Below, piece by piece: positions 6,227 through 42,309 of a stretch of 44,448 nucleotides of DNA (positions within the stretch are counted from its first letter, which is position 1; each line of letters opens with the position of its first letter). The stretch lies in the UHGV virus genome UHGV-1376603; one strand, given 5' to 3'. This DNA comes from a virus. The position numbers and the translations under genes were made by a program. The notes under the pieces were generated by a model. The model ran no database searches. It was not told the DNA's origin and was given only the letters and a program-made list of their open reading frames with translations.

Positions 6227-7422
6227 GGCGTCACCACCAGTGCGATGTTATCCACGCTGCAGGATGCCGACTCATCATAGGCAACCACCAGGTTAGCCGC
6301 GGCTACATCATCGGCAGAGCGCCCAATCAGCAGCTCCATGATGTCGTAATAGCGCGCGTTACCGCCGCTCACGACGCCCAGGTTAGCCGGGGAATAAACG
6401 CGGCTCAGCAGCACGCTGTCACCGATGGCCAGAGAGTTGATATACGAAGCCACAGCCGCTTTGATCTCATCGCCGACCTCAGAGCTATAACCCGTCAGTG
6501 CCTTAAGCGTTATCGACACATAAACCGGCACGTCAATCGGGCGGGAAAAGCGAATTGTGTAGGGGTTGCCGTATTTGTCGGTGACTATCACGGACGTAGT
6601 GCCGTAAGTGGATACGCCCTGCCCTTTAACGCTGCGGATAGTGTTAGCGATTTCCGTTGCATCACCACCCTCGACAATCGCCGAGATCGAGTGCGGAGGA
6701 AGTCCGTTTGAATCCGTCACCTCCTGGTCGTTCTCAAACAGTTTGTGACGGGTCACGCCTTCAACGTTGGCTATCGCACCATCTACCGCATCAAATGGCG
6801 TGAGAGACGCCAGCGCGACGCTTTGCGACTGCCTTACGCGTAGTTCTGCATCTGTTTCCGCTGCTACGCCTACTGTAGCCGCCAGCGGGTTAGTTACCGA
6901 AGCCCATCCGCGCGTAGGTGTGTTGATGCCGTTTACCGACCCCGCTACCGCGGCGACCGCTCCCGAGTTTGCACAGGTGGCCGTAGCTACCACTGTCCCG
7001 TCGGAGCCAATGACCACCGTTGCAGGCAGATTCCAGACCACGCTGTTTGTGTCGCGCACTGAGCCATTGGTGATAGCCGTACCGACGGTACCGGTAAGCA
7101 GCAGATCGACGGTTGAATTTGTCGCTGCGCGCCGGGTGATGCCGTTAATTTTGACGTTGCTCGTCAGTGCGTCACCCAGGGCCGTCGCCGGCGAGAATGA
7201 CCTGTAAACCGAGATGGCCGTGTTATTGGCGTCGTGAATGGCCAGCGCCACCAGCGCTACCATCTGGCCGTCTTTACTGTCAGGCTCCAGATAGGCATCA
7301 CTGCCGTAGATCTGCTGGAAATAGCCGGTGATGGTGTCAAGAACGGTCTGATAGTCGGGCGCACTTATCCCCTCAGCGGTTACCGTTGCCGATAAGCCGA
7401 GTGTGTCGAGGTCCAAAGACAT
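6223..7422 (-). CDS. Baseplate J-like protein (Mu gp47 / P2 gpJ family)
   Basis: 399 aa. Gene order and length fit the baseplate J family. Start overlaps the upstream gene stop. Confidence 0.65.
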   Translation of the reverse strand: MSLDLDTLGLSATVTAEGISAPDYQTVLDTITGYFQQIYGSDAYLEPDSKDGQMVALVALAIHDANNTAISVYRSFSPATALGDALTSNVKINGITRRAATNSTVDLLLTGTVGTAITNGSVRDTNSVVWNLPATVVIGSDGTVVATATCANSGAVAAVAGSVNGINTPTRGWASVTNPLAATVGVAAETDAELRVRQSQSVALASLTPFDAVDGAIANVEGVTRHKLFENDQEVTDSNGLPPHSISAIVEGGDATEIANTIRSVKGQGVSTYGTTSVIVTDKYGNPYTIRFSRPIDVPVYVSITLKALTGYSSEVGDEIKAAVASYINSLAIGDSVLLSRVYSPANLGVVSGGNARYYDIMELLIGRSADDVAAANLVVAYDESASCSVDNIALVVTP

Positions 7423-22463: not shown

Positions 22464-23891
22464 TTAGCTATTCCCCAGCGCTTCCCAGATATCCATTGCC
22501 GTATCGGTTGGAGCAAACGCCATGATGAACGCGTCGGCTACGTTCGGCGATGGTACGTCACGCTTGGCGAGGTCTTTCTTGCTTTCCACCATCACGCGAC
22601 CGTTTTTGTCAAAATCACGGTGCGGGGTAGTAAGTTCCAGCTTGAGCTTTTCCAGCAGCGGACAGGATGAGTCAATGCTAATCAGCTCATCTACCGGGTA
22701 CTGCTCGCCGTTCTTTACCGCGTTGAAGGTGTTACGGAAGCGATCCGCTACCAGCCACCAGGCTTGCGCTTTTAGGTTGGCGAAAAAATCCTTGTTTGGG
22801 ATGCCAATATATTCGTAGTCAGGCTCATTCACACCAGCGCCAGCATTGAATCGCTGATAATTGATGCGGGATGCATTCATGTTTTCGCGCTTACGATCCT
22901 CATTAATTTCTGAGAATTTCGCGCCAGCAGATGCCCCAACGCCGATTGAGTCGTAGACGATATCAGCATCGCGCTCCAGTGCTGCCTGATACGTACGCTG
23001 GCAGCTCTTCAGCAATTCGTCTTCTTTCGCCTTCCACTCATCCGCCCAATACACGACGGAGCCGTGGCGATAGACGTTAGCGCACTTATCGGCGCCGCTA
23101 TCGGCAACGTCGAAACCAATACGCTTACGCCCGCTTGGCTCGAAATTAAGGACTTTATGGGCATCAACAGCCGCCTCAATCCATGACAGCTTGATAATGG
23201 CCGCATCATCATCCGACTCTGGCACGCCTTCGTAGACGTGCTTAAATCCATCCGGATCCCGGCGCTTAGCGGCTTCGATAACCTTCAGCATGGTGTCGGA
23301 CAAAAAGGGGTTTTCATCGTAGTTGATTTTGCGTATCAGCGTATCTTCTGGCGGATCGACCACAAAGTTACGCCACACGAAATCAGTCACCAGCCCGGGG
23401 TTAAAGATAAACCAGCACTCTGAGCCTTCTTTACGGATGGTAGGCTCCAGTATCTTCCACTGGTATTCCGTCAGCGCGTGAGCCTCTTCAAGCCACAGAA
23501 CGCTGATACCTTCCAGAGACTTAATCTCTTCAATGTTGCGCCAGAGCCCATAAAAGACGAATTCAGACCCGGTCACCCGGTTAATGATTTTGTTGTTCAG
23601 AATGCGGAAACGATGCCGTAGGCCAAAGCGGTCAATCTGAATTTTGAGCAGGGTATACACCGACTCTTCAATTTTGTTCTGGATCTGACGTGCACAGCAA
23701 AAGCGCAGGCTGTATTTATTCGACAGAAATATGGCTATGCCAGCGGCATCCCACGATTTTGACGATGACCGGCCACCATAAAGCACTTTGTTACGCGCCT
23801 GCGTCGTCCAGAAGCTACGCAGGACCGGATTCAGCGTCGGTTTGGATGTCAGAGTAGAAGTCATTGAGGTCACGCTCTCCGTTGCCATCAT
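22464..23891 (-). CDS. terL: Terminase large subunit
   Basis: 475 aa. Contains the Walker A-like block VLYGGRSSSKSWDAA and a C-terminal nuclease domain with acidic residues. Follows terS. Confidence 0.8.
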   Translation of the reverse strand: MMATESVTSMTSTLTSKPTLNPVLRSFWTTQARNKVLYGGRSSSKSWDAAGIAIFLSNKYSLRFCCARQIQNKIEESVYTLLKIQIDRFGLRHRFRILNNKIINRVTGSEFVFYGLWRNIEEIKSLEGISVLWLEEAHALTEYQWKILEPTIRKEGSECWFIFNPGLVTDFVWRNFVVDPPEDTLIRKINYDENPFLSDTMLKVIEAAKRRDPDGFKHVYEGVPESDDDAAIIKLSWIEAAVDAHKVLNFEPSGRKRIGFDVADSGADKCANVYRHGSVVYWADEWKAKEDELLKSCQRTYQAALERDADIVYDSIGVGASAGAKFSEINEDRKRENMNASRINYQRFNAGAGVNEPDYEYIGIPNKDFFANLKAQAWWLVADRFRNTFNAVKNGEQYPVDELISIDSSCPLLEKLKLELTTPHRDFDKNGRVMVESKKDLAKRDVPSPNVADAFIMAFAPTDTAMDIWEALGNS

Positions 23892-24588
23892 CTATACCAG
23901 CATCACGGCGAAGACGATCGGCCTCCAGCGACACCTTATCAGTAGCGGCCTCTCTATAAGTAACGTCAGCGCGCTGCTTAATGATTGATACCTTGGTGTA
24001 CTCCAGAGATTCAATGCGCGCAGTATTGCGATGCATGGCTGTCTGAGCTGACGAAATCAAGTTGTGAATGTCTTTAGCCGCCTTGGCATTCGCGGTCTCA
24101 AGCTCTGCTTTCCAGCGGCCAATATTCTCTGCAGCGGTCAGATTTGCCGCACGCAGCCAGAAAAGCTCATCGTCGAGTGTAAGCATCTGAGCATCTTCAG
24201 TAGTAGCATCAGAAAGCAACATTCGACGACCGTAGCCGCCATGCTTCAGGGCGTGCTGATTACCGGTCTGAAATGGATTGGTTGGAGGATTGGTACGCAC
24301 TCCGCGTATCGGTTTCGTTTCTGGTGGAGGTTCAGCTTTTGGTTGCGTACTTTTTTGCGTACGGCCAGCGCTGGCAGGCTTTTCGCTGGTACGCACCTTG
24401 CTCTTTTGCGTACCACTTTGCGTACCATTTTTGCGTACCTGCGTACCGCTATTGCGTACCCAGTCAAACTTTTTAGCCCTCTTCCTGATAGCCCCTTCAG
24501 TAACGCCGTATTTATCGCCTATATCACGGAGACTAAGGACTCCGGCCCGGTATGCCGATTCGATGGCCTCCCAGTCCGGTTTTGCCAT
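23815..24588 (-). CDS. terS: Terminase small subunit with N-terminal HTH
   Basis: N-terminus MAKPDWEAIESAYRAGVLSLRDIGDKYGVTEGAIRKR is terS-HTH-like. The central low-complexity segment is encoded by the heptamer repeats. Overlaps the terL start. Confidence 0.7.
   Translation of the reverse strand: MAKPDWEAIESAYRAGVLSLRDIGDKYGVTEGAIRKRAKKFDWVRNSGTQVRKNGTQSGTQKSKVRTSEKPASAGRTQKSTQPKAEPPPETKPIRGVRTNPPTNPFQTGNQHALKHGGYGRRMLLSDATTEDAQMLTLDDELFWLRAANLTAAENIGRWKAELETANAKAAKDIHNLISSAQTAMHRNTARIESLEYTKVSIIKQRADVTYREAATDKVSLEADRLRRDAGIDDGNGERDLNDFYSDIQTDAESGPA
24291..24461. repeat. Cluster of about 9 copies of heptamer TGCGTAC/GTACGCA (7 direct, 2 inverted) inside terS. Candidate pac site.
   Basis: TTGCGTAC at 24345, 24355, 24407, 24419, 24431, 24441, 24453. 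GTACGCA at 24293 and 24389. Confidence 0.45.
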
Positions 24589-24646
24589 AATTTTGTCCTC
24601 GCCTTGACATTATCGAGCCACCTCTTGAAGTGGCTCTGTAATGCCA

Positions 24647-27138: not shown

Positions 27139-27214
27139 TGGTGCTGGTTGACGGAATCGAACCGCCGACATCCTGCTTACAAGGCAGGCGCTCTACCTGC
27201 TGAGCTAAACCAGC
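27139..27214 (-). tRNA. tRNA-Thr (anticodon UGU)
   Basis: Reverse complement GCTGGTTTAGCTCAGCAGGTAGAGCGCCTGCCTTGTAAGCAGGATGTCGGCGGTTCGATTCCGTCAACCAGCACCA folds as a 76-nt cloverleaf: 7-bp acceptor, D-arm GCTC/GAGC, anticodon stem CCTGC/GCAGG with loop CTTGTAA, T-arm GGCGG/CCGTC, encoded CCA. Confidence 0.85.
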
Positions 27215-40185: not shown

Positions 40186-40610
40186 AACGCACTCCATTTT
40201 ACCGCAGGCCCGGCAAAGTCGGGAAATTCTCCGGCCTTCGCGAGCGCGTGATCTGGATGATTCAGACGCGCGGCCGCCCTGTAACCGGTAGCGAAATAGC
40301 GGAGAAGTTCGGCGTGACGCTTGTCGAATTTAACCGCGTTGCGAACGGTATTACCAGGGGAGAAGGCCGCATTGCACAGCTGATCGCATCGGAAACCTGG
40401 CTCAACGAGGACGGCATCTGCGATCGCACCTTTGACCTGATCACAAGGCCAAAGGTCATTACCCCGCAGGGTAAAACGCGCCTGTTCACTAAGCGCTCGA
40501 TAGCTCAGGCCGCCTCTGGCAACCGCCAGAAATGTATTGATAAAGCGGCCCGGCGCCGCCGGCTTATCGCATCTGGCCTCTATATCGATGAAATGGAGTC
40601 AGTCCTATGA
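40182..40610 (+). CDS. Hypothetical basic protein (142 aa)
   Basis: ORF with ATGA coupling to both neighbours. Confidence 0.4.
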   Translation: MKRTPFYRRPGKVGKFSGLRERVIWMIQTRGRPVTGSEIAEKFGVTLVEFNRVANGITRGEGRIAQLIASETWLNEDGICDRTFDLITRPKVITPQGKTRLFTKRSIAQAASGNRQKCIDKAARRRRLIASGLYIDEMESVL

Positions 40611-41263
40611 CCCGCTACTCACTTATCTATTCTGACCCGGCCTGGTCTTACGGGAACACGATCAGCAACGGTGCCGCCGTAGATCACTACCCCACCATGA
40701 GCCTGCTCGATATGAAGCGGCTCCCGGTATGGGAGCTCGCCGCGGATAACGCTGTTCTAGCGATGTGGTACACCGGCACCCACAACCAGGAGGCGATCGA
40801 GCTGGCCGAGGCCTGGGGCTTTACGGTGCGCACTATGAAGGGCTTCACCTGGGTAAAGTTGAATCAGTTGGCCGAGTTGCGAATTACCAAGGCTCTGGCA
40901 GAGGGAGAGATCGCAGATTTTTACGACTTCCTCGCCCTGCTTAATGCCGAGACGCGCATGAACGGCGGCAACCACACCCGCGCCAATACCGAAGACGTGC
41001 TGATCGCCACCCGCGGCGCCGGGCTGGAACGCAAGCACGCCGGCATTAAGCAGGTGGTCTACAGCCCCCTCGGCGCTCACAGCGAGAAACCGTGGGAAGT
41101 TCGCCACCGCCTGGAGTTGCTCTACGGCGACGTGCCGCGGATTGAGTTATTCAGCCGCAGCGCTGCGCCAGGCTGGAGCCATTGGGGAAACCAATGCGCC
41201 ACCGCTTCCGTTGAGCTGATCCCTGGATGCGCCATCGACGTTGTGAAGACGGAGGCAGCATGA
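40607..41263 (+). CDS. MT-A70 family N6-adenine DNA methyltransferase
   Basis: Block IYSDPAWSY is the DPPW catalytic motif of MT-A70/Dam-like phage methylases. Confidence 0.7.
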   Translation: MTRYSLIYSDPAWSYGNTISNGAAVDHYPTMSLLDMKRLPVWELAADNAVLAMWYTGTHNQEAIELAEAWGFTVRTMKGFTWVKLNQLAELRITKALAEGEIADFYDFLALLNAETRMNGGNHTRANTEDVLIATRGAGLERKHAGIKQVVYSPLGAHSEKPWEVRHRLELLYGDVPRIELFSRSAAPGWSHWGNQCATASVELIPGCAIDVVKTEAA

Positions 41264-42309
41264 GCGCGGCAGCTTACTACAACGAGATCGACCCATTCGC
41301 GGCGCAGTGGCTGCGTAACCTCATAGCCGCCGGGCATATCGCCCCGGGCGAAGTTGACGAACGGAGTATTGAAGATGTCACACCTGACGACCTCAGAGGA
41401 TTTACCCAGTGCCACTTTTTCGCCGGTATCGGCGTCTGGTCCCATTCCCTCCGCCTCGCCGGATGGCCTGACGATCGCCCGGTCTGGACTGGCTCCTGCC
41501 CGTGCCAGCCTTTCAGCGCGGCAGGTAAGGGCGATGGATTTGCTGACGAGCGGCACCTATGGCCAGCCTTCAACCACCTTATCAGCGAGCGCAGGCCTCA
41601 GCATGTCTTTGGCGAACAGGTTGCAGCGGGTAGTGCAAACGCTTGGTTCGACCTTGTACAGGCAGACCTGGAAGGACTGGGATACGCCTTCGGGCTTGTG
41701 CCGTTTACGTCAGCGGGCATCGGCGCGCCGCACATCAGAGAGCGGGCCTACTGGGTGGCCAACGCCGACAGCCTCATCAGTGACCGGCGCTGGAACGTCC
41801 GGGCGCCAGGGCGGCATGACTATTCAAACGGCGGCGATGATGTCAGGCTGGGTAACACCAACGTCACGCGACTGGAAAGACTCGGCGGGAATGACGGCGC
41901 AGCGGGACGGGAAAGAGCGACTGGACCAACTGCCGCGTCAGGCGTTCATGACGGGCTGGCCAACGCCACAGGTCAACTACATCACCAATGCAACGACGGT
42001 GCAAATGAGTGCGGACGGCAGGGAGACACCGAACAAAATCGGATGGGCGGCGAGCCTCTGCGGCCCCTTGAGGTTAACGGTTTTTGGCGAGATGCGGACT
42101 GGCTTCTTTGTCGAGATGGCAAATGGCGTCCAGTTGAACCCGGCACATTCCCGCTGGTTGATGGGGCTGCCGCACGCATGGGACGAGTCGAGCCCGGGGT
42201 GGCAAGAGTGGCAAGCAGCAACCGCGTCGGCCGCCTGAAGGGTTACGGCAACGCCATAAACGCACAGGCAGCTGCGGCTTTCATTCGAGCTTATATGGGG
42301 GTCGCATGA
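41260..42309 (+). CDS. DNA cytosine-5 methyltransferase. The conserved motifs and GC3 signal switch frame twice (frame 1 to frame 2 near 41800, back near 42230), so this is a possible pseudogene or recoded gene.
   Basis: Frame 1 holds motif I FAGIGVW, motif IV PCQPFS and motif VIII PHIRERAYWV at the 5' end, and motif X GYGNAINAQAAAAFI at the 3' end. Frame 2 (41354..42238) holds GW-TP repeats (SGWVTPTSRDWKD, TGWPTPQ) and a near-consensus motif IX LNPAHSRWLMGLPHAWDE. Third-codon-position GC in the middle segment is about 72-74% in frame 2 versus 42-53% in frame 1. The frame-1 5' end is about 69%. Confidence 0.6.
   Translation: MSAAAYYNEIDPFAAQWLRNLIAAGHIAPGEVDERSIEDVTPDDLRGFTQCHFFAGIGVWSHSLRLAGWPDDRPVWTGSCPCQPFSAAGKGDGFADERHLWPAFNHLISERRPQHVFGEQVAAGSANAWFDLVQADLEGLGYAFGLVPFTSAGIGAPHIRERAYWVANADSLISDRRWNVRAPGRHDYSNGGDDVRLGNTNVTRLERLGGNDGAAGRERATGPTAASGVHDGLANATGQLHHQCNDGANECGRQGDTEQNRMGGEPLRPLEVNGFWRDADWLLCRDGKWRPVEPGTFPLVDGAAARMGRVEPGVARVASSNRVGRLKGYGNAINAQAAAAFIRAYMGVA

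Follow-up and report, generated by a model that had tools for sequence, protein, structure and literature searches.

Why should one short word be repeated nine times, in both orientations, within a small segment of a protein-coding gene? This question is raised by UHGV virus genome UHGV-1376603, a stretch of 44,448 bp to which we refer, at its full length, as the window. In this genome, TGCGTAC and its reverse complement GTACGCA have exactly nine matches on both strands (motif count), all of them located within positions 24293-24459, inside the gene for the small terminase subunit (terS). The array is probably the DNA target of the TerS protein whose gene contains it, and would as such constitute the recognition part of the packaging site, pac: across related loci the repeated word changes together with residues of the putative recognition helix of TerS, each of the complete genomes examined has only one such cluster, and the large terminase subunit (TerL) resembles gp2 of phage Sf6. 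The original prediction, made from the sequence of the window, had proposed a candidate pac site composed of short repeats inside terS, and these three observations support it.

The clustering of nine heptamer copies inside terS is borne out, with seven copies on the + strand (TGCGTAC starting at 24344, 24356, 24407, 24419, 24432, 24440 and 24453) and two on the - strand (24293 and 24389). Read along the gene, seven copies are direct (terS nt 130, 143, 151, 164, 176, 227 and 239) and two are inverted (nt 194 and 290); the array thus extends from 130 to 296 nt into the coding region, in the 5' third of the open reading frame (ORF). Over the whole window the number of copies is unremarkable (9 vs 4.6 expected); it is the clustering that is remarkable, with P ~4e-19 for nine uniformly placed matches falling inside 167 bp. 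No exact copy occurs elsewhere in the window, and within 24200-24600 there is a single copy with one mismatch. The repeat unit is the 8-mer GGTACGCA, which is complete at seven of the nine sites; its first base deviates in the copies at 24344 and 24356.

Block 1 of the array (24407..24460, - strand) consists of five direct copies of GGTACGCA, those at gene nt 130 to 176, with spacings of 13, 8, 13 and 12 bp, and footprinting over 36 unique Klebsiella-type arrays identified it as the best-conserved core. The spacing of the last five copies had been given as about 10-12 bp; the measured values, in window order, are 12, 13, 8 and 13 bp. An inverted copy (24388..24395, + strand; gene nt 194) follows 18 bp past block 1, and block 2 (24344..24362, - strand) comprises two direct copies 12 bp apart that are imperfect in their first base, AGTACGCA and CGTACGCA, and is less conserved among relatives than block 1. 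Between the two blocks lies a perfect 12-bp palindrome, GCCAGCGCTGGC (24364..24375); neither its conservation among relatives nor inspection of the window provided evidence of a role for this palindrome, including one as a cut site. The distal inverted copy (24292..24299, + strand; gene nt 290) corresponds to the terminal "51-" layout element of many relatives.

It is the DNA word, rather than the peptide, that is conserved. When the TerS protein was fixed and its codons were resampled, the mean number of heptamer copies was 0.73 and the maximum 5 in 20,000 trials; permutation of the synonymous codons of terS itself yielded a mean of 1.29 and a maximum of 6, also in 20,000 trials, compared to the nine copies observed. 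The word is read as VRN and VRK in frame 0, as GTQ (three times), RTQ and STQ in frame 1, and as VRT (twice) where it is inverted. The peptide stretch GTQ/VRK/GTQ that had been attributed to the repeats is indeed derived from them; the full set is longer, namely VRN, GTQ, VRK, GTQ, GTQ, VRT, RTQ, STQ and VRT. The spurious overlapping ORFs on the opposite strand that had been mentioned along with this stretch are present in the ORF list. Furthermore, in the Pantoea phage PdC23, which has the helix TEGAIRK, GTACGCA occurs between -68 and +56 with respect to the start of terS, outside the linker-coding part: three copies (one direct, two inverted) are intergenic, upstream of terS, and one lies within terS, in its first 60 nt, a further demonstration that the signal resides in the DNA.

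The product of terS (23815..24588, - strand; 257 aa) matches phrog_370 (PHROG 370, "terminase small subunit") with an E value of 2e-86, and the gene is located directly upstream of terL, in the same orientation, the gene order of a small terminase. Searches of Pfam, NCBIfam and PDB sequences, the latter including SF6 G1P and any solved TerS, retrieved no matches, and in public records proteins of this family mostly carry the label "hypothetical protein". AlphaFold2 predicts helices at residues 6-14, 20-27 and 31-41, followed by a low-confidence, probably disordered segment at about aa 44-114 and a long C-terminal helical region; the N-terminal domain, folded alone, has a predicted local distance difference test score (pLDDT) of ~80. 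The gene thus appears to encode a putative helix-turn-helix (HTH) DNA-binding domain of three helices (aa 1-43; 24460..24588, - strand), then a linker encoded by the array, and then the helical C-terminal part. Given its predicted disorder, this linker should be able to tolerate an imposed sequence. The adjacent terL (22464..23891, - strand; 475 aa) encodes a large terminase of headful type (Terminase_3, E 3e-40; PBSX family TIGR01547) that is a close homolog of Sf6 gp2 (structure 4idh, E 7e-80). The earlier claim of a headful-type terminase is thereby upheld, and because TerL is of this type, the array is most likely the part of pac that is recognized by TerS. Taking the first ATG of terL as its start, the two genes overlap by 77 nt (23815-23891) in different frames; in the close relative GZ7 the annotated overlap is 89 nt, and the real terL start may be a downstream Met.

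The evidence that connects the array to the protein comes from natural variation. An alignment of the N-terminal domain was used to collect 160 further loci from IMG/VR and species-representative genomes, and 153 non-redundant loci were compared. In each, the GTNNNCA heptamer repeated most often close to the domain was set against TerS residues 30-36, which form the start of helix 3 and in the window are TEGAIRK (codons at 24481..24501, - strand). The helix (S/T)EGAIRK is accompanied by GTACGCA in 105 of 107 loci, THGA(I/V)NK by GTATCCA in 19 of 20, NHATI(L/I)K by GTAACCA in 9 of 9 and THQAISK by GTTGCCA in 3 of 4, and the variants SDTAVRK and (T/S)HTAINK by GTTCGCA and GTTTCCA, respectively, in 2 of 2 loci each. 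The density in the flanks is ~0.1 per 700 bp, and unconstrained counting of 7-mers recovers identical words. In the AlphaFold2 model the variable residues 31, 32 and 35 occupy positions 1, 2 and 5 of helix 3. These are the classical base-contacting positions of HTH recognition helices. Individual residues can be paired with bases: Arg35 goes with G at heptamer position 5, and a small residue 32 with A at position 3, which is T when residue 32 is Q or T.

The same relationship holds in the reverse direction. IMG/VR was scanned for DNA triads alone, each pattern yielding more than 100 exact matches, and distinct matches away from contig ends were counted, with inspection of the regular-expression failures. 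The predicted helix is encoded upstream in 96 of 104 cases for GTATCCA at spacings (15, 12), 99 of 102 for GTAACCA at (12, 13) and 103 of 106 for GTACGCA at (15, 12). For the layout of the window itself, GTACGCA at (13, 8, 13), there are 81 matches in IMG/VR, 79 of them away from a contig end, and the (T/S)EGAIRK helix is present in 76 of these 79. With GTTGCCA there are two helix variants, (T/S)HQAISK and SHTAIQK, and recovery of the predicted helix is below the ~95% of the other patterns. None of the reverse-test matches has a helix of the wrong class upstream.

The heptamer follows the helix and not the remainder of the protein, as indicated by clustering of the C-terminal parts: GTACGCA is found on three unrelated scaffolds, and one scaffold family carries six heptamers. 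Temperate phages and prophages of Klebsiella (GZ7, Chronis, Mulock, RCIP0034 and the ST-series prophages) are the close relatives of the window, and they retain 5-8 heptamer copies. When 24344-24460 is compared with loci L003, L019-L062 and L538-L617, copy number ranges from 4 to 9 and differs by steps of whole 12-13-bp units; the length of the TerS linker follows the copy number, with proteins of 253-262 aa. SEN34, HK639, GF-2 and others have only the ~45-aa N-terminal domain in common with the TerS of the window and contain 3-4 copies of GTACGCA directly after it. EhrS_59 and ENT1 have a common scaffold and a common layout of three direct copies and one inverted copy, with the linker peptides VRS/VRT/GTQ/VRT in the former and VTK/VTK/GNQ/VVT in the latter; these differences are exactly those dictated by the change of GTACGCA to GTAACCA in two frames and both orientations. 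Layouts, too, are shared between specificities: the +15/+12 triad is found at the same gene position with four different heptamers and the +12/+13/inverted +15 layout with two, and an inverted copy after the direct ones recurs across layouts. In comparison of the arrays, the site is preceded by G in every heptamer class, and the unit can therefore be written as GGTNNNCA.

The large subunits paired with this module in the window, SEN34, HK639 and EhrS_59 have little or no detectable similarity to one another; those of SEN34, HK639 and EhrS_59 have no Pfam matches, and PDB searches with the HK639 and EhrS_59 proteins retrieved none either. By these comparisons, the putative HTH domain and its array behave as a portable cassette. 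The Klebsiella phage RothC offers the converse case: its TerS has a C-terminal part of the window type and an unrelated N-terminal domain, GTACGCA is missing, and at the equivalent place (terS nt 144-190) the gene contains a repeat of its own, ATTCGCA in five copies, including two 12-bp palindromes TGCGAATTCGCA. This suggests that the combination of a DNA-binding domain with sites encoded in the linker is a design used by more than one domain family.

A pac site is expected to be unique and to lie in or near terS, and this is the distribution that was found: in each of the six complete genomes examined there is a single cognate cluster, always in the 5' part of terS, and non-cognate heptamers are never clustered. 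Single copies of the heptamer away from the array number 3-9 in the other genomes, which is about the background or somewhat above it. Avoidance of the heptamer outside the array was considered and rejected, since the window has no extra copies but the other genomes have these singletons.

Arrays of the same kind also occur outside terminase genes. A survey of 759 loci delineated 290 distinct sites with at least three copies of one GTNNNCA heptamer, of which 236 are of a single class with the domain adjacent; in 47 single-class sites the domain was not detected, some of which may be regular-expression misses or arrays at contig ends. The remaining seven are composites of several classes, and the domain is absent from all seven: none is embedded in terS, and no TerS N-terminal domain is encoded within 400 nt. 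In the composites, complete triads of different classes follow one another in a single orientation, in DNA that does not code for protein. The composite in locus L277 (9687-9877; the same element is at 1902-2092 of L292) contains, within about 190 bp and in one orientation, GTATCCA in three copies, GTAACCA in three, GTTTCCA in two and GTTGCCA in three, with near-canonical spacing for each class (+15/+12, or ~13/12 for GTAACCA), and occupies a non-coding stretch of a prophage, with accessory genes on one side and excisionase-like genes on the other. Four to five heptamer classes are combined in L220 (6220-6399 and 2201-2234) and L368 (203-405, 3854-3931 and 4114-4145); further composites were found in L647 (6691-6928), L668 (5155-5243) and L726 (12300-12422). 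Genes for the tape measure protein, superinfection immunity, HTH_17 and DUF1233 excisionase-like proteins, a tail assembly chaperone and a DNA invertase are the neighbours of the composite arrays. We considered a satellite as the bearer of the L277 array; with its tape-measure and excisionase-like genes, the region looks like a prophage accessory region and not a clear satellite.

Derivation from terS remnants is true or likely for the orphan arrays of L199/L216 and L570/L601 and does not hold for the composites. In L216 (oriented, 1388-1720), and also in L199, a terS with the helix SHVSINK is interrupted after ~110 codons, and 3.3 kb downstream (L216 4711-4745) there is a GTATCCA triad with a weak remnant of TerS residues 87-128, adjoining two conserved small genes whose products are 209 aa (beginning MREQTRVYTSALPRINLQF) and ~140 aa (beginning MSKSNLVAFRVPAEL) long; the arrangement is suggestive of an insertion into terS or a rearrangement of this gene. 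In L425 (~6245-6381, - strand) an orphan GTACGCA triad is directly followed by four copies of GGTTAGCGC, a different form of repeat that may be the site of another terminase specificity.

The occurrence of triads away from terS suggests that they are portable cis elements, and the composites may have been collected by other elements for packaging by multiple phages or for diversion of terminases as decoys. A broader scheme, which we put forward tentatively and regard as possible but doubtful, would combine these observations: helix positions 1, 2 and 5 would specify the three central bases of GGTNNNCA, the +15/+12 triad would be a sufficient portable packaging label, and other elements (L277, L220 and L368, with triads of 3-5 specificities and no terS nearby) would exploit this label, either for multi-helper pac piracy or enhanced lateral transduction, or as decoys against competing phages.

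For the window itself, we infer that TerS physically binds the array, that the DNA wraps around a TerS ring and that packaging is initiated there. Residues E31, G32 and R35 at the start of helix 3 would recognize the central bases of GGTACGCA, the 8-bp site, and head-to-tail sites 8-15 bp apart would be occupied by neighbouring subunits of a rotationally symmetric ring; such an arrangement is unsuited to a dimeric repressor, for which inverted repeats would be needed. Bound TerS would then recruit the Sf6-like TerL, which would cut somewhere nearby and initiate a series of headful packaging events that presumably runs from terS towards terL. Because the disordered linker would tolerate the peptides imposed by the sites (VRx and GTQ), the domain and its sites could travel as one specificity cassette. 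If this is correct, TerS or its N-terminal domain would prefer GGTACGCA arrays over GGTAACCA arrays.

Several points weigh against recognition of the array as pac. The 8-bp spacing between two adjacent sites cannot be filled in the same way as the spacings of 12-15 bp, and block 2 and the palindrome GCCAGCGCTGGC are only moderately conserved. The loci compared are phylogenetically related, such that the counts overstate the number of independent events, of which there are ~6-8 specificity switches. The AlphaFold2 models were built from a single sequence without an alignment and are of moderate confidence, and in Foldseek searches with the N-terminal domain the top matches are almost all HTH DNA-binding domains, none of them significant (best E 0.5), because the query is too short; these matches were used qualitatively. 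In the best-studied TerS of pac phages, that of SF6/SPP1, the HTH domain binds DNA non-specifically (PMC4737164), and direct base readout is therefore not the rule for TerS. Experimentally defined termini or virion read starts were found for no member of the family, and the authors of the SEN34 study stated that packaging sequences could not be identified. Record starts were considered as a clue to the termini and discarded: the records of RCIP0034 and RCIP0098, which end at terS nt 685, merely open 12 bp before terL by convention, those of other relatives begin at terS or terL, likewise by convention, and the ends of the window do not overlap.

Among the alternatives, the one that survives best, and which we nevertheless consider unlikely, is that the array is an operator through which TerS or the free N-terminal domain autoregulates terS/terL, for example by a transcriptional roadblock, with packaging specificity residing elsewhere. 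Covariation, after all, demonstrates a match between helix and site and not the outcome of binding, and the pac region of SPP1 overlaps the terS promoters (PMC4737164). Here, however, the sites are 130-300 nt into the coding sequence and not at a promoter, the genomes lack any second cognate cluster that could serve as pac, orphan arrays occur remote from terminase genes, and what the DNA-binding domain of TerS is known to do is to recognize the packaging site. A dual role, as both operator and packaging site, is possible.

We consider very improbable a pac gated by methylation as in phage P1, in which the GTAC (or CG) core would be modified by a phage methyltransferase and its state would control cleavage. 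The window does encode an MT-A70-type adenine methyltransferase (40607-41263, + strand) and, adjacent to it, a C5 cytosine methyltransferase (41227-42309, + strand), similar genes are present in EhrS_59, and the array, like that of P1, has a central spacer with a repeat block on each side. Yet there is no GATC in the array, and the sister specificities GTAACCA, GTATCCA and GTTGCCA, with identical layout, contain neither GTAC nor CG; methylation of the core therefore cannot be a general part of the mechanism, and the P1-style control that had been envisaged in the original prediction finds no support.

There is equally little to recommend cosB-like sites, at which TerS would position TerL for a sequence-specific staggered cut that generates cohesive ends, without headful packaging. 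Repeated TerS sites beside the cut site are the way in which lambda cosB works, and the same combination of HTH domain and array is joined to dissimilar TerLs that are not classifiable by packaging type (SEN34, HK639 and EhrS_59), but the TerL of the window belongs to the PBSX family and is closely related to Sf6 gp2, a headful enzyme, and the sites are contained in coding sequence with no obvious symmetric nicking site resembling cosN. Finally, that the repeats are a functionless by-product of a low-complexity basic linker (VRK/GTQ), arising by slippage or duplication under protein-level selection, is strongly disfavoured: the encoded stretch is indeed basic and predicted to be disordered, and copy number differs by whole units among relatives, as in slippage-prone repeats, but one word in two reading frames and both orientations yields different peptides, the synonymous nulls average no more than 1.3 copies, all copies within a locus change together with the helix, and the PdC23 copies are intergenic and orphan arrays lie in non-coding DNA.

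To our knowledge, the choice of viral DNA by the small terminases of pac phages is poorly understood, with a handful of defined pac sites, namely those of P22, SPP1, P1 and Sf6. The family described here is widespread, with at least 586 matching stretches in IMG/VR and relatives in 235 species-representative genomes (Enterobacterales, Pseudomonas and others; first scans), and it provides natural specificity variants in which helix residues and site bases match one to one, so that recognition of DNA by TerS is directly testable through helix and site swaps. For SEN34 and similar phages, it also yields a candidate for the packaging signal. If recognition proceeds as proposed, pac sites and host pseudo-pac sites would become predictable from sequence, with a bearing on the generalized and lateral transduction by which resistance and virulence genes move in Klebsiella, as well as on packageable cosmid-like vectors and non-transducing therapeutic phages. 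Elsewhere in the window, a gene for tRNA-Thr (anticodon TGT; 27139-27214, - strand) is located between the Q-like antiterminator region and the lysis genes; at the equivalent place the close relative RCIP0034 has genes for tRNA-Asn and tRNA-Arg.

In comparison with known packaging systems, the array shares features with several and is identical to none. In phage P1, seven TGATC(A/G) hexamers in pacA, four and three on either side of the cut, make up a pac that is controlled by Dam. The likeness lies in the multiple copies of a short word, arranged in two blocks inside the gene of the recognition subunit; the differences are that there are no Dam sites here, 24291-24461 containing neither GATC nor TGATC(A/G), and that the sister arrays have no common methylatable core. 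In lambda, the cosB sites R1-R3 are bound by the winged HTH of gpNu1 and position the large subunit, and swaps of helix and site change the specificity among lambda, 21 and N15. The arrangement proposed for the window is similar, in that the small terminase would use its putative N-terminal HTH to recognize multiple copies of a short site, whereas lambda packages from cos, with an intergenic site and bending by IHF, and the window has a TerL of headful type and sites in coding DNA.

The pac of P22 is located inside terS, as proposed for the window, and had been cited as an example of a site constructed from repeats; this does not apply, because P22 uses one asymmetric 22-bp site in gene 3 without repeats (PMC11447400, PMC11260489), in contrast to the array found here. 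That 22-bp sequence, GAAGATTTATCTGAAGTCGTTA, is absent from the window, where the best match has 6 mismatches in 22 positions and lies outside terS. In a P22 mutant whose pac was recoded at wobble positions, burst size fell and transducing particles made up a larger fraction. Copies in host genomes that resemble pac drive transduction by P22, and the pac of ES18 is still unknown (PMC11260489). In SPP1 and SF6, pac is organized as pacL-pacC-pacR with the direct repeats box a, b and c, and G1P forms a ring with peripheral HTH motifs (PMC4737164). Direct repeats at the 5' end of terS are shared with the window, and the likely geometry here as well would be a ring around which the DNA is wrapped, with HTH motifs at its periphery spaced by about one turn of the DNA (PMC4737164). 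The isolated HTH of these phages, however, shows no preference for particular sequences in its binding, and box conservation between SPP1 and SF6 is poor (PMC4737164), whereas the heptamer described here is invariant within a locus and co-varies with the helix residues, which implies direct base readout. Moreover, the SPP1 repeats span promoters and the start of the gene, in contrast to a linker-coding segment 130-296 nt inside the coding region, and no PDB match to SF6 G1P was obtained.

Sf6 offers a resemblance in both TerL and site location: the window TerL is close to Sf6 gp2, and the site is located in terS beside the codons of the DNA-binding domain. Leavitt et al. 2013 (Virology 440:117) reportedly placed the TerS site of Sf6/P22-like phages within terS and described a self-contained N-terminal domain that is exchanged horizontally. 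Here, similarly, domain and site move jointly onto different C-terminal scaffolds and TerLs. Differences from Sf6 are that no solved TerS is detectably matched in sequence by the TerS of the window, that the DNA coding for the linker contains 3-9 copies of an 8-mer as an explicit array, and that a residue-to-base covariation is visible, of which we found no report for Sf6. In the literature searched, no paper joined GTACGCA to a terminase, and searches on pac, TerS and repeats returned general or unrelated work. The principle of a pac recognition site within terS that is read by an exchangeable N-terminal domain is thus known; what sets the present case apart is the uncurated family of TerS proteins, the array of 8-mers in the DNA that encodes their linker, and the clean correspondence between residues and bases.

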